Assembly: GCA_965249725.1 (NCBI GenBank)
Contig: CBDFMQ010000002.1
Location: forward strand, 2,816,001 to 2,880,000
Source: Longimicrobiales bacterium
GTDB lineage: Bacteria > Gemmatimonadota > Gemmatimonadetes > Longimicrobiales > Gaopeijiaceae
Direction of reading: 5' to 3'
DNA length: 64,000 nt
Below the pieces are notes generated by a model, which did no database searches, was not told the origin of the DNA, and was given only the letters and a program-made list of their open reading frames with translations. Positions within the stretch are counted from its first letter, which is position 1. The number at the start of each line of letters is the position of its first letter. Below, piece by piece: positions 4,703-28,693 of the stretch. Position numbers and translations under genes: made by a program.

Positions 4703-6928
4703 CTATTGGTCCTTGATTCGGGCTAGCAGCGCCTCAAAAGACGGCTCACCCTGCAGACTACTCAACAGCGCCTGATCCTCTGCCAGGAGCGCATGGTTCG
4801 ACAGCCCTCCGTTCACGCAATGTTCTAGGGACGAGACCGCGTCCTCCACCTCCCCGAGGTAAGCCAGGCAGCCTCCGAGCAGCCAGGAGAACTGGAGATT
4901 CGACCTGGCCCATTCAGCGAGCGACTCGGTGACGTTTTCCAGGGCCTGCTGCTTCTCATCTCTCAGCGCGTGCCGAAGCACGATACCCAATCTGGCGAAG
5001 GGCTCGTCTCCACTCCTGATCTCGTCGAGAACCTCCAAGGCCTCATCCGATCGCTGCCCGTACACTAGTGCCCAGGCAAGTGTGACCCGGGGAGCAAGGT
5101 TGTTCGGATCGTGCTGAAGTGACCGACGGCCAGCAGCCACGGCCTCCTCGTACTGGCCGGTCCAGATATTGGCCAACGGAACCCAAGGCTCCACGTTGAG
5201 CGGGTCGACCTCGCGCAGTCTTTGGGTGCACCATCGCGCCTCCTCCGTTCGCCCCCCCCAGGCAAACAAGATCGACGTGATCAAGAGCGTCTCCGGATCG
5301 TTGGGTTCCAACGAGAGCGCGCGGTCGGCGTACGGAAGGGCCTCGCGAAGCCGGAACGTGTCGTTGTAGATCCAAGCGATGACGAGGTTCGCCTTCGCCG
5401 AGTCGGGGTCTAACTCCAGCGCTCGCCTCGCGGCGGCTTCGGCCCGATCCATGAGGTCGGGGGATGCGTCGCGACCTCCAGTGACGAAGGAATACAAGAC
5501 CAAGGCCTGTCCCAAGCCCGCGAGTAGCAGCGCACTGTCGCCCACGACCTCGAGGCCCTCCTCGAAGTGTCGAATCGCTCGCGCTAGCGATTCGTCCTCC
5601 ACGCGGGCCAGATCGTGCCGACCTCTGAGGTAGAACTCGAGCTCGCGAACGTCAGCGACGGGCCTCCGCTCCATCTCGCGTTCTTCTTCGGGCGTAAGCG
5701 TGAGGACCAGCGCATCGGCGATTTCGCGTGAGACACGCTCCTGCATCCCGAAGACGTCGTCCATCGTTCCCGCAAACTTGTCGCCCCATAACGGAACGTC
5801 GTCTTCGGCATCCACGAGTTGAGCCGTAATCCTGAGGCTGTCACCAGCTTTCCGGACGCTCCCTTCGAGGACATAACGCACTCCCAATTCCCTCCCGATG
5901 CTCTTCAAGTCCTTGTCGGTGCCCTTTAGTTGCATCGCGGAAGTACGGGATATGACGCGCAACGCCTGTAGCCGTGAAAGGTCGCTGATGATTTCTTCCG
6001 TCAGACCATCACTGAAATACTCGTTGTCCGGGTCGGGACTGCTGTTCACAAAGGGTAGTACGACGATGGATTTCTTTTCCGGTGGAGTCGCCTCGTCAGC
6101 GGCCAGTAGGCTGTCCAGAAACGCCCGTGCGCTCGAGAATCGGTCGACCGCGGTCTTGGCCCACGCAACCGTAACGGTCCGATCGACGGATGCCGGTACT
6201 GCGGGCCGGAGTCTTCGGACAGAGGGAACGGGGTCGGTCGCTTGCTTGATTAGCAGGCTCTGAACCGTGCGTCCGGAGTAGGGCGGCTCACCCGCCAACA
6301 TCTCATAAAGCAAACACCCGAGGCTGTAGATGTCCGTCCGGTGATCTACGTCCTGGCCTTCGAACGCTTGCTCGGGGCTCATGTACTCCGGAGTCCCGAG
6401 GGACAACCCGGTTTGAGTGAGCCGGGTTTCAGACGCGGACTCCAGAGCCAACGCGACACCGAAGTCCGAAACGACAGCATGGCCCCCGTCGATCAAGACG
6501 TTCTCTGGCTTCACATCACGGTGTACAATCCCGGCAGCGTGGGCCACTTCGAGGGCTTCAGCCACCTCGCTCACGATCCGCAGCGCATCGTCCAGCGGAA
6601 GCTGCCCGTCGCGGTTCATGATGTCGCGCAACGAACCGCCGTCGGCGAGGGGCATCACGTAGTAGAGAAGCCCGTCGGCTTCACCGGAATCGTAGAGCGG
6701 GAGAATATGTGGGTGGCGCAGGCTCGCGGTGGTCGAGATCTCGCGAAGAAAACGATCCGCTCCAACCGCAACGGCGAGTTCGGGATTCAGCACCTTGATC
6801 GCGACCTTCCGCGCGTGTTTCAGATCTTCCGCCACGAATACGGTGGCCATCCCACCAGCGCCCAGTTCACTCTCGACCACGTAACTCTTCGAGAGCGTTG
6901 AGCTGAGGGTGTGGAAGATGTCGGACAT
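4703..6928 (-). CDS. Ser/Thr protein kinase with TolB-N-like (SIVVLPF) domain and TPR repeats; gene cassette
   Basis: GAGGMATV, VAIK, HRDVKPEN, DFG and GTPEYMSPE motifs; bounded by attC-like sites. Confidence 0.93.
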   Translation of the reverse strand: MSDIFHTLSSTLSKSYVVESELGAGGMATVFVAEDLKHARKVAIKVLNPELAVAVGADRFLREISTTASLRHPHILPLYDSGEADGLLYYVMPLADGGSLRDIMNRDGQLPLDDALRIVSEVAEALEVAHAAGIVHRDVKPENVLIDGGHAVVSDFGVALALESASETRLTQTGLSLGTPEYMSPEQAFEGQDVDHRTDIYSLGCLLYEMLAGEPPYSGRTVQSLLIKQATDPVPSVRRLRPAVPASVDRTVTVAWAKTAVDRFSSARAFLDSLLAADEATPPEKKSIVVLPFVNSSPDPDNEYFSDGLTEEIISDLSRLQALRVISRTSAMQLKGTDKDLKSIGRELGVRYVLEGSVRKAGDSLRITAQLVDAEDDVPLWGDKFAGTMDDVFGMQERVSREIADALVLTLTPEEEREMERRPVADVRELEFYLRGRHDLARVEDESLARAIRHFEEGLEVVGDSALLLAGLGQALVLYSFVTGGRDASPDLMDRAEAAARRALELDPDSAKANLVIAWIYNDTFRLREALPYADRALSLEPNDPETLLITSILFAWGGRTEEARWCTQRLREVDPLNVEPWVPLANIWTGQYEEAVAAGRRSLQHDPNNLAPRVTLAWALVYGQRSDEALEVLDEIRSGDEPFARLGIVLRHALRDEKQQALENVTESLAEWARSNLQFSWLLGGCLAYLGEVEDAVSSLEHCVNGGLSNHALLAEDQALLSSLQGEPSFEALLARIKDQ

Positions 6929-8266: not shown

Positions 8267-9274
8267 TTAGAGAGCAATCTCCTGTGTCGTGAGGGAGGGG
8301 GTTGGAGGATTGATCCAGACGGCCTCCGGGAGCGGTTTGGGCTTCGGCTCACCGGAGACGAAGCGGTCGGGATGAGCGGCCCAGGCCTCGCGTAGCACGG
8401 CCTGCCTGCCGGCGATGACCTGATCTGCATTCCCGAAGTGGACCTGTTCGGGGGTCAGCATCGAGATACCACCATGGCGGTGCTCGGCGTTGTACCAGCG
8501 GAAGAACGAGCGACAGAAGGTTTTGGCCTGGCCCTGATCCTCGAACCGTCCAGGAAACGAGGGATGGTACTTCAAGGTCTTGAACTGGGCTTCGGAGAAC
8601 GGATTCTCATCCGACACCTGAGGTCGGCTCAGCGAGCGGGTCACCCCGAGATCGGCGAGGAGCTGAGCCGTGCATTGGCTCGTCATCGGAGCTCCTCGAT
8701 CCGAGTGCAAGGTCAGGACCTGGGGCTGGACGCCATGCTTCAGGCAACTCTGCTGGATCAGGCGCCCGGCCAAGGCCGAGCTCTCCCGATCCGCCACCAT
8801 CCATCCCACGATGTAGCGGCTGAAGATGTCCATGATAACGTAGAGGTAGAAGTAGCTCCACTTCCTCGGCCCCAGCAGCCGTGTGATATCCCAGGACCAG
8901 ACCTGGCCCGGGCCCGTCGCCATCAACTCGGGTTTCTGGTATTCGGGATGACTCCGCTGCGCTCGGCGCTCTCGAACTGGCACTTGGGAGGCCAGAACGC
9001 GATACATCGTACGTTCGCTGCACAGGTAGACGTCTTCGTCGAGCAGGGTCGCCACAACCTCGGCCGGGGACCGGTCCACGAATCGCTCCGAACACAGCGT
9101 GTCGAAGACCTTGTCTCGTTCCTTCTCGCTCAAGGCACGGGCTGGGGTCGGGCGGGGCTGCTGATGCCCGGTCGATGGCCTCCGACGACGATAGAACGTG
9201 GCTCGGGCGACCCTGAGCGCATCGCACGCGGGCTTTACCCCTACGTACGTGGCCAGCGCCTCGGCCGCCTTCAC
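8267..9274 (-). CDS. IS3-family transposase OrfB (rve/DDE)
   Basis: WSWDIT, DIFSRYIVGW, LHSDRG, NPFSEAQFKTLK and WYNAEHRH motifs. Confidence 0.92.
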   Translation of the reverse strand: MKAAEALATYVGVKPACDALRVARATFYRRRRPSTGHQQPRPTPARALSEKERDKVFDTLCSERFVDRSPAEVVATLLDEDVYLCSERTMYRVLASQVPVRERRAQRSHPEYQKPELMATGPGQVWSWDITRLLGPRKWSYFYLYVIMDIFSRYIVGWMVADRESSALAGRLIQQSCLKHGVQPQVLTLHSDRGAPMTSQCTAQLLADLGVTRSLSRPQVSDENPFSEAQFKTLKYHPSFPGRFEDQGQAKTFCRSFFRWYNAEHRHGGISMLTPEQVHFGNADQVIAGRQAVLREAWAAHPDRFVSGEPKPKPLPEAVWINPPTPSLTTQEIAL

Positions 9275-9496
9275 GAGTTCGTCCCGTCCTTGAGGCTCAA
9301 TCCCAGCAGCCCTGCAACTTTTCCCTGGACGTCGAGGATCAGGCGCGCCTTCTCGAGTTCCTTCTCCAGGCGAGTGTTCTCGCGCTCCAGCTTGCGCACT
9401 TTCCCCTCCAGCGGATTCCGTTCGCTCGGCTTTCGACCTCGTCTCTTCGACAGCGCTCTCAGCGACCCACTCCGCACCGCCTTGCGCCATGTCGAT
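9271..9496 (-). pseudogene. IS3 OrfA C-terminal remnant (coiled coil)
   Basis: STWRKA...KRRGRK...LERENTRLEKELEKARLILDVQGKV; N-terminal HTH missing. Confidence 0.8.
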
Positions 9497-9497
9497 C

Positions 9498-10211
9498 CCG
9501 GCACCTATGCTCCCCCCTTCCGACGGACTTGCGTGGCGCGAGGAGATCCGCGGCTTCGAAGGCAGCGTGGCCTTGGACGTCCTCCTCGAAGACCTGTGGA
9601 CTCGCGGGATTCCCGTCGTTCCAATCCACATGCTGCCGGTGCCTAGCTTCCAGGGACTTGCCGCAGTGGTAGAGGGCAGGCCCGTGGTCGTGTCGGGCTA
9701 CAGGCATGACGAACCGGGACGGGTCGCGTTTCGCATCTCGCATGAGGCTGGTCACATCGCAAAGGGGGACTGCACGTCTGATGCTCCCGTGGTCGACAAG
9801 GATGAAGAGATTCTGTCGGATGACGCGATGGAGAAGCTCGCTGACCAGTATGCAATCCGAGTGCTCGTGGGCGAAGACACGATTCCTGAGCTAGGCCGCA
9901 GTGCTTTCGACAACTTCCGGGACTTGGCTAATCGGGCCGCTGCGGTGGAGCGGGAGACAGGTGCCGACGCCGGAGCGATCATCTTCTCATGGGCACGTAC
10001 CACGGGCGACTATGCGACTGCCACCATGGCGACCAAGGCGCTGTACCTCTCAACCGGAGCCACCCGAAGTCTAAGGGCCACGGAAAGTCTCATTGCGAGG
10101 GTTGCGCCTCGATCAAGGCAGCCGCGGACGGCCAGCCGCGCCTCGGGTCACCCGAGGTGTGGCGACGCATTGGAACCGTCCATCACATCACCGAAGTCAC
10201 GCAGACGTTGA
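9498..10211 (+). pseudogene. ImmA/IrrE-family metallopeptidase, 5'-truncated
   Basis: RVAFRISHEAGH (HExxH) followed by E..AD..A; homology begins abruptly at the IS junction. Confidence 0.7.
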
Positions 10212-11814: not shown

Positions 11815-11835
11815 ACGCCTGATAAGCGTGAGGTC
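11815..11835 (+). other. tRNA-Ile(GAT) anticodon-arm fragment; probable att remnant
   Basis: ACGCCTGATAAGCGTGAGGTC matches the usual bacterial tRNA-Ile anticodon stem-loop plus variable region; no acceptor, D or T arms. Confidence 0.65.
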
Positions 11836-11907
11836 CCCGTCTCGTCTTCCCGCGCGGTTTACGCAGGAGCGATCTGATTGGCTCGCCCGATGACCCGAAG
11901 TCATGTC

Positions 11908-12063
11908 ATATAACGTTCAGGGCCTCCGAACCGGCCCACGTTTCAGTGCCTTACATCAAGGACAGATCCACAGCCGCTTCCGCTGACCGAAGCCCATTTG
12001 ATCGAGGGCCGGTTGGGCCGAGGGCCGCCTACAGCGGCCCGAGCCGGAGGCCCCGTGTTACAC
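11908..12063 (-). other. att site A, family 2 (156 bp)
   Basis: ATATAACGTTCAGGGCCTCCGAACCGGCCC...GGCCGGTTGGGCCGAGGGCCGCCTACAGCGGCCCGAGCCGGAGGCCCCGTGTTACAC. Confidence 0.9.
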
Positions 12064-12179
12064 GGCGTTTCCCCACGCGCCTCTTCAATCCGCTCCTAAT
12101 CTGGTGAGACAATCGGGAATGCGACTGTATTTGGCACTGGCGTGAACTAGCGGATTGCAATTCGGCCGCTGCACCTTCC

Positions 12180-13001
12180 TTATCCCGGCACCAACGCCAG
12201 GCACGCCCCCACCGGATCCTGAACCACCGCACATTCGTACTCCCCATCGTGCCCCCGTGTGGCCTTGATGATCTTACCCCCTCCCTCCCCTACGCGACGG
12301 AGACTTTCGGCGAGGTCGCCAACGGGGAGGAAAATCATCCAGATAGGCGGCAAACCTAGGTTCACGCCGCGCGCATGGCAGACTCCCGCCGCCGGGTTTC
12401 CGTCATCGCCGAACAAGTGGTAGTCGGCATAGGGCCCGCTTGCGTCCTCCATCTCGACGTCCTGCGCGGACCAGTGAACGACCTGTCGGTAGAAGTCACG
12501 AGTTGCCGAGGCGTCAGAGACCGTCAGGTCGAGCCAGGAGATGCGTCCCACACGCGCCGCAGCGTCGCGCGATGCGGCGCCGTCAGTTGGGAGGATCGCC
12601 TCCGCAGAAACGACGGGGATGATCCCGAACGCCGCCCCATTCGGATCGAGCAGCACCGCCCACTGACTCTTTCCAGCGTCGCCTTTGGCATGCATGAGCT
12701 CACTCCCGCCCAGATCCAGCGCTCGCCCCACACTGGCTGCGACATCGGCGACCTGAATGTGCGGCATCCATTGGAGCGGGAGGTGAGCATATTCCGCGCT
12801 GCGCGCGCCCAAGCCGATGATCGGCATGCCCAGGTTGTTCATCAGATCCTCGCGCCAAAGCGGATTCTCGCCCGTGCTGAGTACACGTGAGTAGAAGCGC
12901 ACTTCACGTTCGTGTTCGGGAACGGCGATGTCGGCGCTGAGGATTCCGCCGACGCGTGGGACAAGGGGGTCACTCATGGTTCGCGTCCTGGTTGACATCA
13001 T
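12180..13001 (-). CDS. VOC/glyoxalase-bleomycin resistance family protein (two domains); cassette 6
   Basis: Duplicated W..L...D......FY / V.D.......GG / DP.GA motifs. Confidence 0.9.
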   Translation of the reverse strand: MMSTRTRTMSDPLVPRVGGILSADIAVPEHEREVRFYSRVLSTGENPLWREDLMNNLGMPIIGLGARSAEYAHLPLQWMPHIQVADVAASVGRALDLGGSELMHAKGDAGKSQWAVLLDPNGAAFGIIPVVSAEAILPTDGAASRDAAARVGRISWLDLTVSDASATRDFYRQVVHWSAQDVEMEDASGPYADYHLFGDDGNPAAGVCHARGVNLGLPPIWMIFLPVGDLAESLRRVGEGGGKIIKATRGHDGEYECAVVQDPVGACLALVPG

Positions 13002-13316
13002 GTTGGGTCAAGGTTCATTGGCCAGATATGGACTTCAATGGGCATCGCGGCAACGATTCTCGAGGCAGGGGCCCGAGACCTTCTCGAAGAATGGTACCGG
13101 GTGAGGCCACAGTCCGTGCGGGTGATCCGGAGGCGGCCTAGCTAGGAATTGGCCTGTACCAATCCGGGTCTGATACTGTGCTCATCTCTGCGATAATCCC
13201 GCCCCATGGCGCAGACCGCACACCCGGACACGGTTCTGCGAACCTGCAAAGGGCCCCGTTGTTCCGCATTTCGGACGACCTACATGAGAAATGTCGATCT
13301 CATCTACGACAATGAC

Positions 13317-13470
13317 GTGTAACGTTCAGGGCCTCCGAACCGGCCCACATTCGTGGGTTACTTCTGCTCTCTTCCACGTACCACTTCCGTAACTCCACGT
13401 CCTCCCGGTCGTGGCCGGTTGGGTCGAGGGCCGCCTACAGCGGCCCGAGCCGGAGGCCCATTTGTTATCA
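13317..13470 (-). other. att site B, family 2 (154 bp)
   Basis: GTGTAACGTTCAGGGCCTCCG...CGGAGGCCCATTTGTTATCA. Confidence 0.9.
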
Positions 13471-13484
13471 GGCGTTGCCGTGTT

Positions 13485-13817
13485 TCACGACAGCACTAGG
13501 TAGGCGGCCACTTCGTCGTCCTCGAACTCGTAAATCCGAGCCGAGTTGGACCGCAGGATCCTCTCTGTTTCTTGGACGCTACAATTGCCGCGGCGTATCC
13601 AGATGACCTTCGGAGGGGGGCCGAAGACGAAGCTCATTTGCTGGAAATCGTTGTCCTTCGACACGATTACCAAGTTCGCCTCCCTCGCATGGTCCCAGAT
13701 CTCTGAATCCGACGCTCTTGTCATCCCCAAATCCCGAACGTGTACAGAATCAGGGAAGATGTCGGCGAGGGCGTGAGCTAAGCGTGGGGCCAGGTTCTCA
13801 TCGAAAAGGAGCTTCAC
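13485..13817 (-). CDS. DUF5615/PIN-like toxin; cassette 5
   Basis: MKLLFDENL...SD.EIW...VSKD.DF...PPKVIW. Confidence 0.9.
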   Translation of the reverse strand: MKLLFDENLAPRLAHALADIFPDSVHVRDLGMTRASDSEIWDHAREANLVIVSKDNDFQQMSFVFGPPPKVIWIRRGNCSVQETERILRSNSARIYEFEDDEVAAYLVLS

Positions 13818-13821
13818 CGCC

Positions 13822-14049
13822 TCACGCCGGAGGCAGCGCGATCAGGCGACGCTCCCGTTCTGCAGCGAACGCCAGGGCCGCCTTGATGTCCTCCCTCTCC
13901 AGATCCGGCAACTCCGCCAGGATCTCGTCCTCCGTCATTCCGGAGGCTAGGTAGTCGAGCACATCGGACACCGTGATCCGCATCCCGCGGATACACGGCT
14001 TCCCACTTCTCTTGCCTGACTCGATCGTGATTCGGTCTCGGTAGTCCAT
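13822..14049 (-). CDS. DUF433 antitoxin; cassette 5
   Basis: GKPCIRGMRITV.DVL..LASG...EEIL...DI.AAL.FAA. Confidence 0.92.
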   Translation of the reverse strand: MDYRDRITIESGKRSGKPCIRGMRITVSDVLDYLASGMTEDEILAELPDLEREDIKAALAFAAERERRLIALPPA

Positions 14050-14217
14050 GCCTCAAATACCCCCAACCTCTTCGGAAGGGTCAAGCTTGCATTGCCAACA
14101 CTGACTCGGCACACGATCGCCTGCAAGATCCTTCTGCTCGAATCGCTTCACCTGTGCGAGCCCAGAACTCGATCGGTCGCCCTCGCCCTGGCCGTTTTCT
14201 CTGCCGGAGCAATGTCC

Positions 14218-14372
14218 TGATAACGTTCTAGGGTGCCGACGTTGCCCGTCGCATGCGCCGCACGAACCCGCCGGCACCAGATGCACCAATACCGCTCACG
14301 CGCGAGCCACGTCAAAGGGCAATGTACAGCGTAGCGAACGAAGTGAGCGCAGCCGGCACCCGGTTGTTATCG
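14218..14372 (-). other. att site C, sequence-divergent variant (155 bp)
   Basis: TGATAACGTTCTAGGGTGCCG ACGTTGCCC...GGGCAATGT..side arm..CGGCACCCGGTTGTTATCG; same length and geometry as family 2. Confidence 0.85.
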
Positions 14373-14463
14373 GAAGTGACCGTGCTGGCCACCCTTGGTC
14401 GTGCTGAGCGTAGGCGCCGACCCTATCCCTTGCTAGCACATAGCAGTACTGCTATTCTCCATC

Positions 14464-14836
14464 ATGTCCTCGCCGGCCCGGAAACCGCTCCACTTCGTGG
14501 CCTCAAGCATCAAGGATCTCCGCGGTCTGCCGGAGGAGATCAAGGATGTGTTCGGGGCCGCCTTGCCTTGACGCTCAATACGGGGACCACCCCGCAGGAG
14601 CGAAACCATTCGGCGAGGGAGTGCCACGGGAGGTCATGAAACTGGTAGAGGACTACGACGGCAATACGTACCGCGCCGCCTACACGGTCGCGCTGAAGAG
14701 CGCGGTCTACGTACTCCATGTCTTCACCAAGAAGTCGAAGCGGGGAATCGGCACGCCACGTCCGGACAAGGATGCGATTCGGTCAAGACTCCAGGCGGCG
14801 AGGGAACACCACGCGAGGTACTACGAGAAGAGTTAA
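14464..14836 (+). pseudogene. RelE/Gp49-like toxin, +1 frameshift near 14565; cassette 4 (inverted)
   Basis: MSSPARKPLHFVASSIKDLRGLPEEIKDVFGAAL / LDAQYG..P..AKPF...YRAAYTV...VYVLHVF.KKS. Confidence 0.8.
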
Positions 14837-14861
14837 AGGCAGTTCTAGAGGAGAAGATGCA

Positions 14862-15200
14862 ATGAGCGACGATCTGAAGATTCACGACAGCACGGGCAAC
14901 GTCTTCGCCGACATCGGCGCCCGCGACGCCGAGGAGCTGCTCGCAAAGGCGGAACTCGCGCGTCTCATCCGACACGAGCTCACACGGCGCGGACTCACGC
15001 AGGCCGTGGCTGCAGACCTCCTCGGCATGAAGCAGCCTGATGTCTCGGACCTGGTACGCGGGAAGCTGTCCCGCTTCAGCCTATCGCGGCTTGAGAGACT
15101 GCTGAACGCTCTCGACCTTGAGATTCGAATCCAGGTCGGGCCGAAGCCTGCCGACAAGGCTCAGGCCGGCATCACTGTTGAGCTCGTCGAGTCATTCTGA
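14862..15200 (+). CDS. XRE/HigA-like HTH antitoxin; cassette 4
   Basis: STGNVFADIG...KAEL...LTQ..AA..LG..QPDVSDL.RGKL..FS..RL. Confidence 0.9.
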   Translation: MSDDLKIHDSTGNVFADIGARDAEELLAKAELARLIRHELTRRGLTQAVAADLLGMKQPDVSDLVRGKLSRFSLSRLERLLNALDLEIRIQVGPKPADKAQAGITVELVESF

Positions 15201-15239
15201 CCTGCGGCCTCGGCCCTCCACATAGTGCACGGTCATTTC

Positions 15240-15393
15240 CGATAACGTTCAGGGCCTCCGAACCGGCCCTCACTTCGGTTCTTGGTTCTGCTCCAACTCA
15301 GCTATCAATCCCGTCGACCAATCGCCCCGGTCGCGGGCCGGTTGGGTCGAGGGCCGCCTATAGCGGCCCGAGCCGGAGACCCCTCTGTTAGAC
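15240..15393 (-). other. att site D, family 2 (154 bp)
   Basis: CGATAACGTTCAGGGCCTCCG...CGGAGACCCCTCTGTTAGAC. Confidence 0.9.
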
Positions 15394-15412
15394 GATGCCG
15401 TTCCACACTCGT

Positions 15413-15718
15413 CTACTTCGTCGTCGTTCCTGCTTCAGCGTGTAGCTTGATCCCAAGAGCCTTGACCACCTTCAGGATTGTGTCAAAGCCCGGGCTACGC
15501 TCGCCGGACAACGCCTTGTACAGGCTCTCTCGAGACAGTCCAGCGTCTCTGGCCACCTGAGTCATTCCCTTGGCCCGGGCGATGTCTCCAAGGGCCTTGG
15601 CCACAAATGCGGCGTCACCATCCGCCTCCTCGAGGCACGCCTCTAGGTACGCAGCCATTTCTTCTGGCGTCCTGAGATGTTCAGCAACGTCGTATCGGGT
15701 CGTCTGAGTCGTTCCCAT
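15413..15718 (-). CDS. Addiction module antidote (HI1420-like HTH); cassette 3
   Basis: YDVAEHL...AYL...ALGDIARAKGM.QVA..AGLSRESLYKALS..PGFDTILKV. Confidence 0.92.
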   Translation of the reverse strand: MGTTQTTRYDVAEHLRTPEEMAAYLEACLEEADGDAAFVAKALGDIARAKGMTQVARDAGLSRESLYKALSGERSPGFDTILKVVKALGIKLHAEAGTTTK

Positions 15719-15724
15719 GCTCTT

Positions 15725-16021
15725 TTACTCCGATAGATCGCGAGCGAGGCGTAGCGCAGCCTTGATGTCCTTGGTCTGCGAACTCTTATCCCCTCCCGCA
15801 AGCAAGATGATCAGCTCCCGCCCATACCGTTTGAAATAGACTCGGTATCCGGGTCCGTAATCGATTCGTAGTTCCGAGACACCCTCACCAACGGGCCTGA
15901 CATCCCCTGGATTGCCGACAGCAAGCCGCTCAATCCGGACCTGAACGCGGGCTCTCGCCCGCATATCTCGGAGGTCGTCTAGCCACCGCGCGAAGAACTC
16001 AGTCTTACGGATCTCGATCAT
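15725..16021 (-). CDS. Addiction module killer (HI1419/RelE-like toxin); cassette 3
   Basis: F..WL..LRD..ARAR...RI.RL..GNPGD..PVGEGVSELRIDYGPGYRVYF...LLAGGDKSSQ. Confidence 0.92.
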   Translation of the reverse strand: MIEIRKTEFFARWLDDLRDMRARARVQVRIERLAVGNPGDVRPVGEGVSELRIDYGPGYRVYFKRYGRELIILLAGGDKSSQTKDIKAALRLARDLSE

Positions 16022-16028
16022 GTCCAAG

Positions 16029-16046
16029 TGTAGCCACGTGGCTACA
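16029..16046. promoter_or_regulatory. Perfect 18-bp palindrome TGTAGCCACGTGGCTACA, probable TA operator
   Basis: Lies directly upstream of the toxin start. Confidence 0.65.
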
Positions 16047-16090
16047 GTCGGTCAATCCAATAGCTGCGGTCGCGGTCGGTGTCGATTGCC

Positions 16091-16303
16091 TCACCAGTAC
16101 CACCCGGCCTCACGCGGATGAACATACGACCTCGCCTCACACTGCCCACGTTTGATCGCAGCTTGCGAACGCCGACGCTCCCGCCGGTTCAAGCGATTCC
16201 TGTACCACCGCGGAGGCACACACAGCCACTCGCATCCCCGCGAGCTAGCCTTCCATCCCTTGATCCGGCCGCCCGGCAGGATCTTCCACCTTCTCTGAGC
16301 CAT
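16091..16303 (-). CDS. Small Arg/Trp-rich hypothetical protein; cassette 3
   Basis: RBS AGGGAGG before ATG 16303; 70 aa ending in WYW. Confidence 0.55.
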   Translation of the reverse strand: MAQRRWKILPGGRIKGWKASSRGCEWLCVPPRWYRNRLNRRERRRSQAAIKRGQCEARSYVHPREAGWYW

Positions 16304-16495
16304 TTCGCCCTCCCTGTAGAGTGCTACAGGAAGGGCGCCCTTTCCTTCAGAATCATACGTGCCATCTGTCAAACCTCCTTTACCAGCGTTCTTGCCCCGT
16401 CGACAACATCAAGCGCACGCCTGCCGCCTACGTGCCGCAATGCGCTCCTCCAGCCAGGTCGCGTAGCTCTCCGCAGATCTTGTTTCAAGGCCAGG

Positions 16496-16520
16496 TAGTT
16501 ATTACCGTTGTTATAACTAT
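16496..16520. promoter_or_regulatory. AT-rich imperfect palindrome TAGTTATTACCGTTGTTATAACTAT, probable AbrB-type operator/promoter
   Basis: Located 20 bp upstream of the antitoxin ATG. Confidence 0.5.
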
Positions 16521-16539
16521 CACAAACGAGGACTCGCTC

Positions 16540-16767
16540 ATGCCCAAGCAAACCACGATCCGCGCTATCGGCAACTCGGCCGGTACGACCATCCCAAAGC
16601 CTATGCTCGAGCGTTATCACTTGGGCGAAGGCGACGCCGTCCATTTGGTTGAGACCGAGGAAGGCATCCTGATCACTCCCTTCGATCCAGACTTCGATGA
16701 GGCCATGGAGATCTACGCAGAGGGTGCCAAGCGCTATCGCAATGCCATGCGTGAACTCGCCAAGTGA
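16540..16767 (+). CDS. AbrB/MazE-family antitoxin; cassette 3
   Basis: TTIRAIGNSAG.TIPK..L....L.EGD...GI.ITPFDP...YRNAMRELAK. Confidence 0.9.
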   Translation: MPKQTTIRAIGNSAGTTIPKPMLERYHLGEGDAVHLVETEEGILITPFDPDFDEAMEIYAEGAKRYRNAMRELAK

Positions 16768-17153
16768 CCGAGCCACGTTGGCTTTCTCAAGTACAAGTCC
16801 TCTCCATCCATTCTGATCAGATCCAAGCCCACGGCGGATCCCTTGGGCTCCGGGACAGGGGACTCCTGGAGTCCGCCCTCGAACGCCCTCGCAATCGCTT
16901 CCATTACGATCCCGAGGCCGACCTCCCTTCTCTCGCGGCCGCGTACGGGTTTGGACTTTCAAGCAATCATCCCTTCGTGGACGGCAACAAGCGCATCGCC
17001 TTTCAAGCCATGTATCTCTTCCTCGGTTTGAACGGCTTCCGCATTGATGCCTCTGAAGAAGAGGTCGCCACTACTATCCTTTCTCTGGCGCGCGGTGACC
17101 TCGACGAACCCACCCTGGCTGACTGGCTCCGTCACAACATCTCTCCTCGCTGA
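16764..17153 (+). CDS. doc: Death-on-curing (Doc/Fic) toxin; cassette 3
   Basis: GLRD.GLLESAL.RP and NHPFVDGNKR motifs; GTGA overlap with the antitoxin. Confidence 0.92.
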   Translation: MTEPRWLSQVQVLSIHSDQIQAHGGSLGLRDRGLLESALERPRNRFHYDPEADLPSLAAAYGFGLSSNHPFVDGNKRIAFQAMYLFLGLNGFRIDASEEEVATTILSLARGDLDEPTLADWLRHNISPR

Positions 17154-17179
17154 CTCAGCCCCTTCATTCGAGGCATTGC

Positions 17180-17333
17180 GGCTAACGTTCAGGGCCTCCG
17201 AACCGGCCCCACCTTCCGTTCTCTACTCTACGGCAGATCCGCTGCCGCCTTCGTTGACCGAAGACCTCCCGGTCGCGGCCGGTTGGGTCGAGGGCCGCTT
17301 ACAGCGGCCCGAGTCGGAGGCCCCGTGTTATGT
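17180..17333 (-). other. att site E, family 2 (154 bp)
   Basis: GGCTAACGTTCAGGGCCTCCG...CGGAGGCCCCGTGTTATGT. Confidence 0.9.
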
Positions 17334-17422
17334 GACGTCGTGACCACGCAAGACCGTTCCCTTCTCTGCCAACGGCGACACGAACGCGCGCGGTCCGCGC
17401 GAGCACCACACCCGCACCCCTC

Positions 17423-17881
17423 CTATCGTGAAACCTCAAGCCACTGGTCCATGAACTCCGCAAAGTCTCCTGGCATGTCTGGACGGGACGCCACCCATGC
17501 CTCCCGAGCATATGGGAGCCGCAGAGTCTCCGCGAGCAAGAGGTCCAAGGCGGTCGGAGGAAGGACGTCATTGTCTACCTGACGCCACACGAGTTCCGCT
17601 TGACGGAAGAGGGCCTCCAGCCTAAAGGCGACAAGCATTCGCTCCTCAGTGCTGAAGTCGTCACGGAGCGCTCCGCTACGTATCCGACTGTACAAGGCAA
17701 GCCACTCTCGGTCTCCCGCCATCGTCGTGACCAAGTCGGTCGTGAAGATCGCGACGTCGCGGTATGCCTCGGCCCGGGCTACTGCCGTGTTCTGTCGTAT
17801 CTCTAGCCCCACGAAGACTAGAGAAAAAGTCACACCGAGTATGCCGATCAATTCCTTCAGAGCCGTGCGTTTCGCCATCAT
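17423..17881 (-). CDS. Hypothetical protein with N-terminal TM helix; cassette 2
   Basis: IGILGV..SLVFVG.EIRQNT N-terminus; only gene between sites E and F. Confidence 0.8.
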   Translation of the reverse strand: MMAKRTALKELIGILGVTFSLVFVGLEIRQNTAVARAEAYRDVAIFTTDLVTTMAGDREWLALYSRIRSGALRDDFSTEERMLVAFRLEALFRQAELVWRQVDNDVLPPTALDLLLAETLRLPYAREAWVASRPDMPGDFAEFMDQWLEVSR

Positions 17882-18029
17882 GGATCACTCCCGACAAGAT
17901 CGGCCAGAGTCGATGAGCCACGTTCCTTGCGTCGACCCCGTAAGTTGAACCGCGCCATCCATGCACGCCGACTCCATCTTCTTATCCCTTGCCCTTCCAT
18001 TCCACAACTATGCTTGCCTGAGCGATTGC

Positions 18030-18182
18030 ACATAACGTTCAGGGCCTCCGAACCGGCCCCACATTCGTTTCTTGCTTCTGCTCCAATCTTCTATCACACA
18101 GTTCGACCGAAGTCCAACCGGTTGCGGCCGGTTGGGTCGAGGGCCGCCTTCAGCGGCCCGAGCCGGAGGCCCAGTGTTATAT
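18030..18182 (-). other. att site F, family 2 (153 bp)
   Basis: ACATAACGTTCAGGGCCTCCG...CGGAGGCCCAGTGTTATAT. Confidence 0.9.
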
Positions 18183-18241
18183 GATGTGACGCTGGTCAAC
18201 TAAGTACTGCTGTTGATACTTCGGCGGGACGGGTCCTAGAG

Positions 18242-20911
18242 TCAGTTGGGCACCCGCTCCTTCAACTCCTCGAAGAAGTTGTCGACGAGAATCAATTGGC
18301 TGTCGAGATCAAGCGATCTCATCAGCATCAGGCGTTGGTCGTCCGGGCTGATGTCATAACCCGCGCTGCCGTTTCCGATCTGGTAGTCGGTCGAAGAGAA
18401 TAGGACTCGCTGCTGTCCTACAGAAAATGATGGATCGACGTTGATTTCGGCGACCATCTGTGTCCCTCCGACCGACTCACCCTGGTAGAACAACTCTCTG
18501 CCGCTGTGTGCCCACACGGACTCATCGCCGTAGGTAGTGGAGACCTGCCACAGGCCCGCGTCGACGTCGGGGAATGGACGCACGTACACCTGAGCCCGAT
18601 CCTCGGGGTTCGCTCTCCAGGTATACGAGAGCCAGCGCCCGTCCGGGGAAAGCGAGATCTCGGTCGCCCGCACTCCATCCGTGACCAACGGAGTCGCTAG
18701 ACTGTCCAATTCTGGCCGTATCGCGAAGATGTCCGCGTTGGCAACCAGGCCGTCAGATTCGACGAATACGAGCCACGTGCCATCGGGCGTGTACGCGAAT
18801 TCCTGAATGGGCCGCTCCCTGTCCAGGACGAGTTCAGCCGAGCCACTCCCGTCTGCTCTCTTTCTCCACAGATCGCGTTGCCCGGCCCGATTCGACACGA
18901 ACGTGACGAACTCCGCATCCCTCGACCACCGAGGCCTGAGATTCTCAGTCCCCTCGAATGTGAGTCGGGACAGCGGGCCTGAGTCCAATTGCTTGACATA
19001 CAAGTCCGCAGTCCCGTCAGCGTCGATGATCGACGCGACGAGCCTCGTGCCGCCCGGGGAAATGGCAAGACTGACCATGAAGGCGTCGGTGGGAAACGCC
19101 CAACCGGGATCAACTTCTTGGACAGTCCCGTCTCGGTCGACCCAGACAGGGGTGTGGAGGCCTCCGCCCACACCCGCCCGGTACACAAGCCTGTCCGACT
19201 CTGACACGTCGAAGTACGGTAGTCCTTGGCTTTGCAGCACTCCCTCTACGACTGGTTCCACAGCACCCATGAGTTCCAGGTTCGTCACGTCGAAGAGTGC
19301 CGCCAAGAGAGTCCCCTCGGTCGGGTTCACGAAGAGCAGATGTCCGGTGGAGACGTAGCGCGGGGCCTGGCCCGGCGTGAGGTCTTTGGTTTCGCCGGTC
19401 TCCAGGTCCAAGGCTTGGATTCGCTGGCCAGAAGCAGACCCCCGCACCTGATACAGGAGGCTACTGCTACCCGGCAGCACCTGCGCGAAGCTGTGGGAAA
19501 CGTCTCCGGCTGCGGTATCCACTCGGGTAACGACCTCGGACGGCCCACCGGTCGCTGGTACGCGGCTCAGTCCTCGCGCCGAGTCTCTGTAGTAGACCCA
19601 ATCACCCTCCCGACTCCACGTTGGGCAGCAGCTGGCAGATTCGGTGAGGATGCGCACTGCCCCCCCATCAAGGGGGACGACCCTAACCGAACCGCCGGAA
19701 GTATGGAAAGCCACCTCCCTATCATCCGGAGAAATAGTCGGGGCGTATGCATTCCCTGCATTCCGGATCGGAGTGGCGCTCAACGCGTCCCACCGCCTCA
19801 TCATCAGTGCGAGTTGCCCCTCCTCATCCACGCCCTTGTACACCATGAATGATCCATCGGCCGAAAGGTCTAGGCTTCCAAACGTGGACGCAAAGGACTG
19901 GCCTACTCCCATCAGCACTGAGACGCGTGTGACCGACTCTGGAGGCTCGGGACGGAGAAGTGACCAGCCCTGACTGAGCGCGAGCACCGCCGCCAGAGAG
20001 GCGAAAGCCATTGTCGACCGCTTCCACGGACCTGCATCTGAAGCGCCGACTCCGACGACCGCCTCGCCATATCGGAAGTGTTCATCTCCCAGCGCCGTCG
20101 CGAACTCCTGAGACGACTTGAACCGATCCGCAGGGAGCTTCTCCAACGCCTTCCGCAGCGCAGCGTCAACATTCGCCGGGATCGAAGCCCGCTTCTCGGT
20201 GGCCGAGATTGGTCGGGAGGAAATGATCTGGCCCAAGACGGCCTGAGCGGTTTTCCCCACGTATGGCGGGTCGCCCGTCAGCATCTCATATAGGACGGAG
20301 CCCAAGGCGTAGGTGTCCGTCGAAGCACCCACGAACTGATCGCCCGTTGCCTGCTCGGGGCTCATATAGAACGGGGTCCCCAGACTCAGGCCGGTCTCCG
20401 TCAGACGCCCTCCACCAGCCGCTCCAACAGCCAGCGCGATCCCAAAGTCGGCGATTAGTGGTCGCCCTTCGTGGAGCAAGATGTTGGCTGGCTTGATGTC
20501 TCGGTGGATGATCTTGTGGCGGTGAGCGTAGTCGAGCGCCTCTGCTAGGTCCGTGGTAATCTTCACCGCTTCGTCCACGGGGAGTTGATGCTCACGGTCC
20601 AGCCTGTCCCGTAACGACTCTCCCTCGATGTAGGGCATCACGTAGTAGAGGAAGCTGTCGGCTTCGCCCGAGTCGTGGAGCGGCAGGATGTTCGGGTGGG
20701 TCAGGTTGGCCGTAGTTTCGATCTCGGCCAGGAATCGCTCAGCGCCTACCACCGCTGCCAACTCGGGCTTCAGGACCTTCAAGGCCACGTTGCGGTTGTG
20801 CTTCAGGTCCTTGGCGAGATAGACCGTAGCCATCCCACCCTCGCCGAGCTCACGCTCGATGACGTACCGATTCTCAAGGGCTCCGTTCAGGCGAGAGACT
20901 GAATCGGACAC
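18242..20911 (-). CDS. Membrane Ser/Thr kinase with TolB-like (PD40) beta-propeller; cassette 1
   Basis: GEGGMATV, HRDIKPAN, DFG and GTPFYMSPE motifs; TM helix; repeated SPDG/WS..G motifs. Confidence 0.95.
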   Translation of the reverse strand: MSDSVSRLNGALENRYVIERELGEGGMATVYLAKDLKHNRNVALKVLKPELAAVVGAERFLAEIETTANLTHPNILPLHDSGEADSFLYYVMPYIEGESLRDRLDREHQLPVDEAVKITTDLAEALDYAHRHKIIHRDIKPANILLHEGRPLIADFGIALAVGAAGGGRLTETGLSLGTPFYMSPEQATGDQFVGASTDTYALGSVLYEMLTGDPPYVGKTAQAVLGQIISSRPISATEKRASIPANVDAALRKALEKLPADRFKSSQEFATALGDEHFRYGEAVVGVGASDAGPWKRSTMAFASLAAVLALSQGWSLLRPEPPESVTRVSVLMGVGQSFASTFGSLDLSADGSFMVYKGVDEEGQLALMMRRWDALSATPIRNAGNAYAPTISPDDREVAFHTSGGSVRVVPLDGGAVRILTESASCCPTWSREGDWVYYRDSARGLSRVPATGGPSEVVTRVDTAAGDVSHSFAQVLPGSSSLLYQVRGSASGQRIQALDLETGETKDLTPGQAPRYVSTGHLLFVNPTEGTLLAALFDVTNLELMGAVEPVVEGVLQSQGLPYFDVSESDRLVYRAGVGGGLHTPVWVDRDGTVQEVDPGWAFPTDAFMVSLAISPGGTRLVASIIDADGTADLYVKQLDSGPLSRLTFEGTENLRPRWSRDAEFVTFVSNRAGQRDLWRKRADGSGSAELVLDRERPIQEFAYTPDGTWLVFVESDGLVANADIFAIRPELDSLATPLVTDGVRATEISLSPDGRWLSYTWRANPEDRAQVYVRPFPDVDAGLWQVSTTYGDESVWAHSGRELFYQGESVGGTQMVAEINVDPSFSVGQQRVLFSSTDYQIGNGSAGYDISPDDQRLMLMRSLDLDSQLILVDNFFEELKERVPN

Positions 20912-20965
20912 AGGCGTACTCCGGCACTATCAGGCGGCGGGCAGCATCGCGTGGGGGGCGTGGAT

Positions 20966-20994
20966 AACGTGAGGGGCAGGAGCGGGCGGGTCAA
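20966..20994 (-). promoter_or_regulatory. Possible sigma70 promoter inside cassette 1 (TTGACC-17 bp-CACGTT)
   Basis: Consensus-like hexamers with 17-bp spacing, 55 bp upstream of the kinase start. Confidence 0.35.
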
Positions 20995-21060
20995 CAAGAG
21001 GCTTGGCCCCGGGCCCTGACTGCCGTACGCCCTGGGCGATGCTGGTTCACAAGTGAACCG

Positions 21061-21197
21061 CCCGAAGTCATATCATATAACGTTTGTATCTCCGACGTAC
21101 TACAAGTCCCCGTTTGGGATTCGGACCCGAGACGCGCGGGTAATGATCCGGTAGCCGGAGATTACCGAACTAGTTCGCGTAAGGGCCTTATAGTTCG
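21061..21197 (-). other. attI-like array head site
   Basis: Core ATATAAC (21075-21081) complements the end of site F. It is followed by a GTATCTCCG/CGGAGATTAC inverted pair and palindrome CGAACTAGTTCG (21166-21177) but has no terminal GTTA box; it sits between cassette 1 and the recombinase. Confidence 0.65.
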
Positions 21198-21426
21198 TGG
21201 TCAGATCTTGACGAACAACTACACCGGGCCGGCCTGCGCGATGAGATCGCTGGGGGGCAGTGGGCCGATCCGGGCTCTCCGGCGGACATCCCTACTCCGC
21301 AGGATCGTGCCAATATGCTGATCGTGGCTCCAGGACGCCAACCAGCCCCTCGTGGCGTCGTCTAACGCTTCGGTCCAGGACCGATTCCGCCATGGCTCCG
21401 CCCGTCGTGTCTTGCGACCGTGGACC

Positions 21427-21951
21427 ATGGACTCCGACTCACCCCGAAACACGCCGTCCAGCCCGCAGCCGACCCAGCTACCGTCTGGGAGTGACATCGA
21501 GGTGACTGTCCGGGCGGGCGCAATCGTGCTACGCGGGCCCTACCGGGAGGATGTTGTCTCGCTGATCCGCTCCCTCCCCGGACGGCGCTGGGACCGCCGC
21601 GAACGCGTTTGGCGCCTACCGGATACATCACTGGTCAGAGCCGCTCTATGGGATAAACTGGGTATCCGTCTCGACCCGGAGCCCCGCGCCGACCGAAAGA
21701 CCCACTTGCGGTCCGACGAGCGGGAGGGCTTATCACTCCGCTTCGATGAAGAGATGCGGCTCCGCGGCTACGCTCCGCGCACTCGACGCGCGTATGGAGG
21801 CCACATCCGCCGCCTTCTCTCCGATGTCGGTGACGCGGAGGACCTGCCGGAAGCACTGCGCGAGCACGTACTCCGCCGGGTCGCCACCGACAAGGTATCT
21901 CGCTCCTACCACAACCAACTGATCAGCGCGCTTCGCTCTCACGAGGTCTGA
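21427..21951 (+). pseudogene. Tyrosine recombinase/integrase N-terminal part (HARP-like domain + SAM-like integrase domain); catalytic domain deleted
   Basis: PYREDVVSLIRSLPGRRWD...VWRLP, then EEMRLRGYAPRTRRAY..HIRR and SRSYHNQLISALR; stops before the R-H-R-Y domain. Confidence 0.8.
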
Positions 21952-26044: not shown

Positions 26045-28693
26045 TCAGTTCGGCACCCGCTCCTTGAGCTCCTCGAAGAAATTCTGCACCACGACGATAT
26101 CCGACAGACCACCTGCGGTTCCCGACATGAGCATCAGGAACTCTTCGTCATTCGGATGTACGTCGTACACCTGGTGAAACCCGCTTACGACGAATCCATC
26201 CAAGGAGAAAAGCACATCCCGGCTCTCCACGGAGAAGGACGAACCTCCCGGAATCTGAGCAGCGACCAACTCACGGTTCCGATTCAGGTAGAAGAGCTCC
26301 TCCCCGCTGTGCGCCCAGACCGGCTCCGCCCCGCCTTCCCTGGAGACGGTATAGCGCGCGGAAGCGACACCCTCTGGAAAGGGCACCACGTAGAGCTCGT
26401 ACCGACCCGATTCGTTGGACGAATAAGCGAGCCATCGGCCGTCGGGAGACAGAGCCGGGCTCCGCTCGGTGAAGTCGGACGTGACGACCACCGAAACAGT
26501 CTCGCCGTCGGCTCCGAGTCTTCTGGCGTAGATGTCGCCAGCGCCGTACCCGGTTCGGTAGACCAGCCATTCGCCGTCTCCGGAGACCAGGGACTCCCAT
26601 ATCTGTTCCTCGGCCTCGGCCAAGAGCTCCGGCGAGCCGCTTCCGTCTGCCCTTCTCGTCCAGACGGCGTCTGGTCCCTCACCACGGTTGGAGAGGAAGA
26701 CGACCTCGTCGCCCGACGGTGTCCAGCTCGGCCTGAGGTTCGCACTCCCGTCGACCGTGAGCTTCGTCACGGGGCCATCATCGAGTTGCTTGACCCAAAC
26801 GTCGAGTCCGGACTCGACGGACGAGTAGGCGAGTCGGTCCCCGCTCGGGGAGAGCGTCAAGCCGAGTTGATTGTTCGGTGCCCCACGGATCGTCCACCGC
26901 GGATCGATTTCCCGAGGGTTACCCTCGCGGTCCACCCAAGCGGGTCGATATCCAGCCTCAGCGGCGCCCGCCGGCAAGTAGGCAAGGGTGCCGGTCTCGG
27001 AAAGGGCAAATTGCGAAGCGGACCCTGTCTTCACCTGAATGCCCTCGAGGATGGCGACCGAGGGTCCCGTCATCTCGAGGCTCTCGAGGTCGAACGGAGC
27101 AGCCATCAAGGTGCCTTGGGCCGTCGTGTATACGATGTGGCCGGACAACGCATACCGTGCCATGGCGCCTGCTATGAGCTGGCGAACCGCTCCGCCCTCC
27201 GGCCCGACAACCGCGATACCACTCTCCTCCAGGTTGCCTCGGTTGATGGTGAGGAGTAGGCCGCTGCCGTCCGGAAGCACCGCGGGGTACTTGAGATCGA
27301 CGTCCGGCATCCGGGCGAACTCCATAGGCTCGCCCCCGGCGGCCGGAATACGCCAGATGATCCCAGAGGTGATAACCCTGTAATAGATCATTCCATCCGA
27401 ACCGAACGCAGCATTGCTCCCACCTGGGACGATCCGTACGGGTGGCCCCCCCGCAAAGGGCATGACGGACGGTCCGCCGCCGCCCGAGAACACCATAGTG
27501 CTGCCGTCCGGACTGATGGCTGGACTCTGCCGCCCCACCGTGCCGGGGATCGGGCGAGCTGTCAGATCGTCCATCGATCTCTCCCAGAGCTGGTAGCGAT
27601 TCTCCGGAGCCGATCCACGGTACACGATTCTGGAACCATCGGGAGAAATGGCCAGGTCGATGCCGGAGTTCGAGCGTCCGAGCACGCCGTTCTCGCCCAG
27701 CGGCAATTCAAATCGGGCGATCGGCGGGGGGGCGTCACTCGGGCCCAGGCCGGCCCAGAGCAGAGCCACCACCGTCGTCGCCGCGAAGAAGGCTGCCGTC
27801 CCCCTCCAGTATCCCCGCTGGCCGGCCCCCGAGAGCGTTACCTCGTCTCCGTGTCTGAACCCTGGGTCGGCCAGTGCCTTGGCGAAGCGGTCAGCCCCCG
27901 TGAACCGGTCCGCAGGCAGCTTTTCGAGCGCTTTCCGCAGGGCAGCATCGACGTTGGCCGGGATCGACCTTCGCACCGAAGTCGCCGACACTGGCAGGCC
28001 TTGGATGATCTTGCCGAGCACCGCCTGGGCAGTACTGCCGATGTAGGGCGGGTCGCCCACCAGCATCTCGTACAGCACGCACGCGAGGGCATAGGTGTCG
28101 CTTGCAGGGCCCACGATCTGATCGCCCGTTGCTTGCTCCGGCGACATGTAGAAGGGCGTCCCGACGGACAGGCCTGTCTCGGTCAGGCGGTTGCCGCCCG
28201 CAGCGCCTACAGCCAAGGCGATCCCGAAGTCGGCCACGAGAGGCTCACCTCGACTGAGCAGGATGTTGCCGGGCTTGATGTCCCGATGGACGATCCCCTG
28301 CTCGTGCGCGGTATGCAGCGCATTGGCCACGGCAGTCGCGATGCCCAGGGCCTCGTCGACCGGCAGCTGCTTATCCCGGTCGATCCGCTCCCGAAGGGTC
28401 TCCCCCTCGATGTACGGCATCGCGTAAAAGAGGAAGGTGTCCGCCTCGCCCGAATCGAACAGCGGAAGGATGTGCGGATGCTGGAGGTTGGCGGTGGTCT
28501 CGATCTCGGCGAGGAATCGCTCGGCACCGACCACCGCAGCCAACTCGGGCTTCAAGACCTTCAGCGCGACGTTGCGGTTGTGCTTCAGGTCTTTGGCCAG
28601 GTAGACGGTGGCCATGCCACCCTCACCCAACTCGCCCTCGATGGCGTAGCGGCCCTCGAGGGCGGTATTGAGTCGTTCGATGGGATCGGACAT
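26045..28693 (-). CDS. Membrane Ser/Thr kinase with TolB-like propeller
   Basis: Kinase motifs and SPDG repeats; paralogue of 18242-20911. Confidence 0.95.
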   Translation of the reverse strand: MSDPIERLNTALEGRYAIEGELGEGGMATVYLAKDLKHNRNVALKVLKPELAAVVGAERFLAEIETTANLQHPHILPLFDSGEADTFLFYAMPYIEGETLRERIDRDKQLPVDEALGIATAVANALHTAHEQGIVHRDIKPGNILLSRGEPLVADFGIALAVGAAGGNRLTETGLSVGTPFYMSPEQATGDQIVGPASDTYALACVLYEMLVGDPPYIGSTAQAVLGKIIQGLPVSATSVRRSIPANVDAALRKALEKLPADRFTGADRFAKALADPGFRHGDEVTLSGAGQRGYWRGTAAFFAATTVVALLWAGLGPSDAPPPIARFELPLGENGVLGRSNSGIDLAISPDGSRIVYRGSAPENRYQLWERSMDDLTARPIPGTVGRQSPAISPDGSTMVFSGGGGPSVMPFAGGPPVRIVPGGSNAAFGSDGMIYYRVITSGIIWRIPAAGGEPMEFARMPDVDLKYPAVLPDGSGLLLTINRGNLEESGIAVVGPEGGAVRQLIAGAMARYALSGHIVYTTAQGTLMAAPFDLESLEMTGPSVAILEGIQVKTGSASQFALSETGTLAYLPAGAAEAGYRPAWVDREGNPREIDPRWTIRGAPNNQLGLTLSPSGDRLAYSSVESGLDVWVKQLDDGPVTKLTVDGSANLRPSWTPSGDEVVFLSNRGEGPDAVWTRRADGSGSPELLAEAEEQIWESLVSGDGEWLVYRTGYGAGDIYARRLGADGETVSVVVTSDFTERSPALSPDGRWLAYSSNESGRYELYVVPFPEGVASARYTVSREGGAEPVWAHSGEELFYLNRNRELVAAQIPGGSSFSVESRDVLFSLDGFVVSGFHQVYDVHPNDEEFLMLMSGTAGGLSDIVVVQNFFEELKERVPN

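Follow-up and report, generated by a model that had tools for sequence, protein, structure and literature searches.

A conserved wobble and a second helix in the paired cassette ends of an integron-like array from the Longimicrobiales

Introduction

Integron cassettes pair with themselves at their ends, and in most of them the self-pairing of R′ and R″ spans 9-11 nt without a break (Bouvier et al. 2009, PMC2727003). In classical attC sites a bulged G specifies the strand (PMC2727003). Docking of the bulged attC bases by the I2 helix explains integron recombination (PMC7790495). Recombinases that lie near attC sites without an IntI domain are classed as not IntI (PMC4889954), and Gemmatimonadota are among the listed integron hosts (PMC8618304). 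PMC4889954 and PMC5371416 call the origin of new cassettes unknown.

Here we describe an array in a 64,000-nt stretch of DNA from Longimicrobiales bacterium (assembly GCA_965249725.1, contig CBDFMQ010000002.1, positions 2,816,001 to 2,880,000), hereafter the window. The array resembles an integron cassette array but misses two canonical features, the I2 insertion and the bulged L-arm base. We found no account of its wobble-containing stem, or of its type of recombinase at arrays, in a literature search outside which lay most subscription journals and supplements.

Results

Layout of the array

Six cassettes and six hairpin sites of 147-150 nt occupy window positions 11911-21100 on the minus strand. 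An earlier note on this DNA, made from the letters alone, needed correcting on the strand: the top strand of the array is the window's minus strand. The features are as follows.

21352..21951, plus strand: truncated tyrosine recombinase gene, 199 aa, with a weakly HARP-like N-terminal domain and a SAM-like domain, without the catalytic domain; divergent from the array
21070..21100, minus strand: attI-like site of putative function, with a left arm of 11 nt (21098-21088), a spacer of 7 nt and a right arm of 11 nt (21080-21070)
18176..21081, minus strand: cassette 1, 2906 bp; Ser/Thr kinase-PD40 gene (20911-18242); ends match 14/15, A/G at position 11
18033..18179, minus strand: attC-like site 1, 147 nt; uninterrupted 9-bp L stem and a side hairpin
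17327..18036, minus strand: cassette 2, 710 bp; 152-aa ORF, no Pfam match; ends match over 8 bp, A/G at 11, 3 bp more
17183..17330, minus strand: attC-like site 2
15387..17186, minus strand: cassette 3, 1800 bp; fusion of a 5′ phd/doc part (MazE-like and Fic) and a 3′ Gp49/HI1420 part; ends non-cognate
15243..15390, minus strand: attC-like site 3
14366..15246, minus strand: cassette 4, 881 bp; Gp49/HTH_37 toxin-antitoxin pair on the opposite strand; A/G at 11
14366-14385 and 15227-15246: paired ends of cassette 4, matching at 19/20
14221..14369, minus strand: attC-like site 4; different sequence subtype, same geometry
13464..14224, minus strand: cassette 5, 761 bp; DUF433/DUF5615 pair; ends match over 9 bp, then the wobble and 4 bp after a one-base shift
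13320..13467, minus strand: attC-like site 5
12057..13323, minus strand: cassette 6, 1267 bp; glyoxalase-like gene; ends match over 8 bp, A/G at 11, 2 bp more
11911..12060, minus strand: attC-like site 6
11849..11914, minus strand: 5′ remnant, ~65 nt, of an ORF-less cassette whose whole form (234 bp) is in L085

As in attC, R″ (AAC) and R′ (GTT) boxes bound each of the window's six hairpin sites. Cassettes 1-6 encode the kinase-PD40 protein, the ORF without a Pfam match, three toxin-antitoxin pairs (two of them in cassette 3), the DUF433/DUF5615 pair and the glyoxalase-like protein; no transposase was found in any of the six. An extra L-arm base was observed in 0 of 97 attC-like sites, a count that follows partly from the construction of the search pattern, versus 86 of 107 IntI-type sites. 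Where this base occurs in IntI-type sites of the same bacterial family (L249-L268), it is a top-strand G in 84 of 86, whereas the classical description has the opposite letter.

The putative crossover in the attI-like site is after the G at 21081. The same 11-7-11 layout, presumably a Xer-like arm geometry, also stands at array heads in L114, L229 and G093, as judged from sequence. No sigma-70 match for a cassette promoter (Pc) was found in 20900-21500, where about none would be expected by chance either, and Rfam gave no match. We dropped an apparent seventh core near 11817, which by eye matches a tRNA-Ile-like fragment at 11815-11832, just past the array end (longer copy at C3:1940907); ARAGORN called no tRNA in the window. 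An insertion-sequence transposase gene (rve domain) lies at 8267-9631, ~2 kb past the array end. Three paralogues of a much expanded kinase family are encoded in the window (4703-6928, 18242-20911 and 26045-28699), of which only the middle one is a cassette.

A recombinase family without the IntI insertion

The window's recombinase stops before the I2 region of the catalytic domain. Its relatives were present in 69 of 314 genomes of the bacterial family and are named Longimicrobiales or Gemmatimonadota. Eleven intact relatives have 70-100 extra N-terminal residues and are without the insertion (I2) found in three IntI proteins. Against TIGR02249 the intact relatives scored 205-216 bits, below the cut-off of 265. 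NF040815 (XerA-like) was the best NCBIfam match for three of four intact relatives, above its cut-off in one. The predicted fold matches XerA and VchIntIA, with 4a8e, 5hxy and 2a3v among the top fold matches.

We observed that the N-terminal domain of the intact relatives is weakly HARP-like. A profile search (E = 0.0042) placed SMARCAL1 HARP (PDB 4o66) and the N-terminal domains of UvsW and archaeal XPB among the best hits. The Pfam HARP domain (PF07443) matched 6 of 18 members, all under the cut-off (18-19 bits vs 25). The best Foldseek match had an E value of 0.045, and VIA gave Z scores of 4.2-4.3 for UvsW and XPB, tied with unrelated folds; the fold searches with this domain returned nothing at E 0.001 or Z 5. 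HARP has been linked to mismatch recognition.

Arrays with the window's family of attC-like sites (family attC) adjoin an insertion-less recombinase in L114, L120, L139, L229, L237, L239 and L247. When loci were chosen by recombinase, family attC matches appeared in only 4 of 20, many of these contigs being short and other attC types undetectable. Within 20 kb of IntI genes no family attC was found, either upstream (0 of 40 regions) or downstream (0 of 20). Two layouts exist for the insertion-less recombinase, with the array downstream and co-oriented (L139, L237, L239 and L247) or upstream and divergent (the window, L114 and L229).

The same genome encodes a full-length IntI with its own, different arrays. 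In this IntI (G000:C3:1028977-1029906) the R-H-S-F motif has K at the position of its usual H. Its array is downstream and co-oriented, an arrangement shared by many family members. We had sought IntI arrays upstream of 40 same-family IntI genes and found none there; the arrays are downstream instead. The window array is probably frozen unless some enzyme acts in trans.

End matching in the six cassettes

The earlier note had claimed that every cassette carries its own extended terminal inverted repeats. The matches that it quoted are present for cassettes 4 (19/20), 1 (14/15), 5 (9), and 2 and 6 (8 each). Only cassettes 1 and 4 exceed the published 9-11 nt; the 8-9 nt of the others is within that range, so the claim does not extend to every cassette. 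The match quoted for cassette 3 is present too but, ungapped, spans only 5 nt; this cassette is a fusion whose ends have different cognate partners in relatives.

Positions were numbered from the G of the core. Cassette-specific matching, also claimed, was recovered at positions 5-7, where 17 of 18 matched, a score reached by 1 of all 720 pairings of the six cassettes. Outside the 7-bp core the excess came mainly from cassettes 1 and 4 (39 of 78 at positions 8-20 vs a mean of 29.5; 17 of 720 pairings), and some of the match comes from a motif common to the cassettes, G at 8 and A/G at 11, and is not cassette-specific. Positions 21-40 gave no signal. With cassette 3 left out, the cognate pairing had the lowest duplex energy among all 120 pairings.

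We observed the same A/G mismatch at position 11, which the earlier note had missed, in five of the six cassettes. In cassette 5 it appears after a one-base shift, and the start of this cassette has one extra base relative to L068. In L068, L117 and L279 cassette 5 has full-length homologues bounded on both sides by the same core, and the neighbours differ in L068 and L279. These sequence comparisons are consistent with the proposal that the cassettes move as units with crossover at the core. The longer hairpin that had been proposed for the circular form found computational support: the pairing probability of the bottom-strand R boxes was 0.83-0.99 at the circular junction vs 0.05-0.68 in the array.

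A wobble and a second covarying helix across 154 cassettes

The attC family is present in 59 of 314 genomes of the bacterial family and in 71 metagenome stretches, with 61 loci among those listed. Forty genome regions around the best attC matches were collected, and sites were found by a profile and an arm-pairing scan in which the end match was not used. This gave 161 cassettes (154 after de-duplication, from 68 loci), gathered by attC similarity and not by recombinase. All 154 pairs were counted, including 61 that are incomplete at positions 5-7 through missed sites, fusions or decay.

Identity between a cassette's own ends was 72-95% at positions 5-8, 71% at 9, 47% at 10 and 13% at 11 (n = 154). 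It rose again to 80, 77, 77 and 67% at positions 12-15 (32-36% when shuffled), was ~40% at 16-17 and reached background after 20. Mean identity at 12-16 was 0.686 vs 0.321 shuffled (300 shuffles, maximum 0.368), with positions 21-30 at background. With one cassette per homology cluster (n = 74), identity was 0.746 vs 0.344. In this reduced set, mutual information at 12-15 was 0.64-1.08 bits in register vs at most 0.23 when slid by one, and three or four pair types occur per position. Among homologous, well-matched cassette pairs, 13 of 17 had two-sided changes.

At position 11, 118 of 154 cassettes combine an R′ A with an R″ G, so that the bottom strand has a T.G wobble where the top strand has a C.A mismatch. 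This A is not a start codon, because the ATG at 11-13 (28 of 154) opens an ORF in only 4 of 154. In a second array of the same genome, whose attC sequence is different, all nine cassettes paired by eye (nine of nine) have A/G at 11; four other starts there were left unpaired. Within five arrays adjacent to the recombinase, only 9 of 16 cassettes had A/G in register; near-copies in L247, shifted by one base, account for four of the misses. The bottom-strand duplex was more stable than the top in 123 of 154 cassettes, versus 49 of 89 and 49 of 97 in the same-family and Gammaproteobacterial IntI cassettes described below. The gap between strands averages 1.2 kcal/mol. The cognate duplex was stronger than the array duplex in 122 of 133 cases.

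Comparison with IntI cassettes

Two sets of IntI cassettes served as controls. The Gammaproteobacterial set has 97 cassettes from 30 of 54 loci scanned. Of 60 plasmid matches listed, two were retrieved; three L148 cassettes entered the control, which holds no class 1 clinical cassettes. The same-family set has 89 cassettes from 12 loci, this genome included, of which two supply many. Ends in the latter are 64% GC vs 62%, and we rejected GC content as the cause of the extension.

Gammaproteobacterial ends paired over a median of 9 nt with nothing at 12-16. Same-family ends paired over a median of 12, with positions 14-16 at background (0.22 vs 0.27 shuffled), and in the IntI arrays of this genome the ends match over 11-13 nt without a wobble. 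The median stem was 15 in the attC-family set vs 12 in the GC-matched IntI cassettes, an advantage of only ~3 bp. With either wobble counted as neutral, stems of at least 15 occurred in 89 of 154 attC-family cassettes vs 7 of 89 same-family and 3 of 97 Gammaproteobacterial ones. A/G at 11 was present in 118 of 154 vs 2 of 89 and 6 of 97, respectively.

The comparison with shuffled pairings and canonical cassettes thus cut both ways for the earlier note: canonical ends also extend, to medians of 9 or 12, but stop short of 15 and have no wobble. Extended pairing as such is therefore ordinary; what sets this integron-like system apart from these uneven controls is the wobble and the second helix.

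A fused cassette and borrowed ends

The ends of cassette 3 are non-cognate because it is a fusion of two cassettes. Its first 721 nt match whole phd/doc cassettes of 775-778 bp in relatives, and its last part matches separate Gp49/HI1420 toxin-antitoxin cassettes, each piece with its own partner end.

The first 21 nt of cassette 1 match the remnant after the last attC-like site at 20 of 21 positions; at its other end, the final 25 nt agree at 24 of 25 positions with the flank of a site at C3:1938015-1938039. A single 234-bp ORF-less cassette, complete in L085, has the remnant as its 5′ part and the C3 flank as its 3′ part. The interiors of cassette 1 and this cassette are unrelated; the shared end stretches exceed the paired zone and stop sharply. 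The kinase cargo belongs to a family with many copies in this chromosome, and its source locus was not found in this genome or in two sister genomes. L127 has another kinase cassette with different matched ends, and the gene of cassette 6 recurs, 88% identical, in an L109 cassette with other matched ends. Cassette 1 is possibly a trace of cassette birth in which cargo was replaced inside an existing junction, as one clear case accompanied by a few hints.

Reuse of both ends with unrelated cargo was uncommon (4 of 11,627 non-homologous pairs; 0 of 3,875 in IntI cassettes). Two of the four pairs link a 731-bp cassette to ORF-less ones of ~190 bp, and these set-wide pairs may be deletions from a larger cassette. 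ORF-less ~190-bp cassettes share both ends with cassettes of 731-847 bp that encode a 155-aa membrane-like protein (L047, L061, L066, L068 and L112).

The last 84-93 nt of the ORF-less cassette recur with the attC site in G000:C3:1938015-1938107, L051, L088, L106 and L108, each time with unrelated DNA upstream and with a sharp common boundary beside a short palindrome. This boundary is possibly an insertion or breakage hotspot. A distance of ~890 kb separates the two halves of the ORF-less cassette (window 11849-11914 and G000:C3:1934694-1938107), which share a strand; the second small cluster may therefore be this array's detached tail.

Discussion

Our data suggest that a selected basal stem probably clamps the wobble, and that the wobble likely marks the strand in place of bulged bases. 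The system is integron-like and would be run by a recombinase without the IntI insertion. In the excised circle a cassette's own ends would flank its attC-like site and zip up, so that the ends of each intact cassette (~15 complementary bases with A/G at 11) would form the basal stem of the folded bottom-strand site. As this stem would be complete only in the circle, it would favour insertion over excision.

Positions 2-12 may be the recombinase's 11-bp binding arm, comparable to an arm of the attI-like site; one such arm would account for the 12-bp stem of GC-rich IntI cassettes. In the bottom-strand arm the T at 11 would be paired to G, not A, and the other strand would have C.A without that T. 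A paired T at 11 would arise only in the bottom-strand hairpin because its partner base is G. The wobble may thereby mark the strand to be cut, the role of the bulged bases in classical attC. Since the arm would end in a wobble, a further helix would be needed as a hold, and positions 12-16 would clamp the wobble inside the duplex; hence a stem ~3 bp longer than in same-family IntI cassettes. The energy bias of 1.2 kcal/mol is small, so strand choice would require a read-out by protein. That the HARP-like domain performs this read-out is a guess.

An alternative is that the end match is a by-product: one end was copied when the cassette formed, or mismatches were corrected in the folded circle, and the extra pairs have no function. 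This would explain the cassette-specific matching and the gradual fall-off at positions 16-20, and cassette 1 does bear both ends of another cassette. We consider it unlikely, since copying does not account for a shared mismatch at 11 in 118 of 154 cassettes, or for the frequent one at 10, and IntI cassettes of the same genomes stop at ~12. The earlier note's idea that the ends record how they were generated is likewise unsupported as simple copying, given the fixed mismatch at 11 and the two-sided changes between homologous cassettes; a version of it survives through the borrowed ends of cassette 1.

The stem could also be the ordinary 9-11 nt integron extension, lengthened by high GC and lineage history, with a canonical IntI acting in trans and the neighbouring recombinase a bystander. 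Such an extension is already described (PMC2727003), GC-rich IntI cassettes reach 12-13, and the genome encodes a full-length IntI while the window's own enzyme is broken. The GC-matched IntI cassettes, however, have neither the wobble nor positions 14-16. Family sites were never beside IntI in the regions checked (0 of 40 upstream, 0 of 20 downstream), and they head arrays of the insertion-less enzyme in L114, L139, L229, L237, L239 and L247. A single extra L-arm base marks 86 of 107 IntI-type sites, whereas the window's six L stems are uninterrupted. Together these make the ordinary extension quite unlikely. That the ends are inverted double-stranded binding sites of the transposon-end kind, for which a hairpin is unnecessary, is very unlikely: the enzyme is XerA-like without the helix tied to single-strand recombination, and G8 and A11 are conserved, but positions 5-7, 9 and 12-15 vary if both ends change together, which fits base pairing and not sequence read-out, and the mismatch fixed here is the very one that forms a wobble on one of the strands.

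A wobble clamped in a selected basal stem also admits a bolder and rather doubtful extension. There may be a second class of integron that recombines folded DNA without I2, with a G-T strand key outside attC that is read by the fused HARP-like domain. As both cassette ends build the stem, its cassettes would be born by transplant of whole circular junctions onto new DNA, of which cassette 1, with a chromosomal-type kinase gene between the two ends of an ORF-less cassette of this array, would be a snapshot.

The absence of the I2 helix and of bulged bases, with a fixed wobble in a longer basal stem instead, makes a different strand-selection code testable. Paired ends can serve as a barcode for intact, fused or re-shelled cassettes, which bears on the origin of new cassettes. 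Tools that require an IntI domain would not score these arrays as complete integrons.

Compared with transposon terminal inverted repeats, the repeats here differ between cassettes and covary, and the cassettes carry no transposase. The best matches of the N-terminal domain, all weak, are SMARCAL1 HARP (PDB 4o66) and the N-terminal domains of UvsW and XPB. Unlike XerA-like recombinases (NF040815), the relatives of the window's enzyme sit at cassette arrays and have this added domain. The locus is like sedentary chromosomal integrons (VchIntIA, PDB 2a3v) in its recombinase gene, attI-like site, hairpin-closed cassettes and toxin-antitoxin cargo on the opposite strand. It differs in a recombinase family without the IntI insertion and with an extra N-terminal domain, and in attC-like sites with an uninterrupted 9-bp L stem, a side hairpin and no single bulged bases. 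With the R′/R″ self-pairing of integrons it shares the GTT/AAC core and a cassette-specific end complementarity past the 7-nt boxes that is completed in the circle. Here, however, the median stem is 15 and not 9-12, with a T.G wobble at 11, a frequent mismatch at 10 and a second covarying helix at 12-15.
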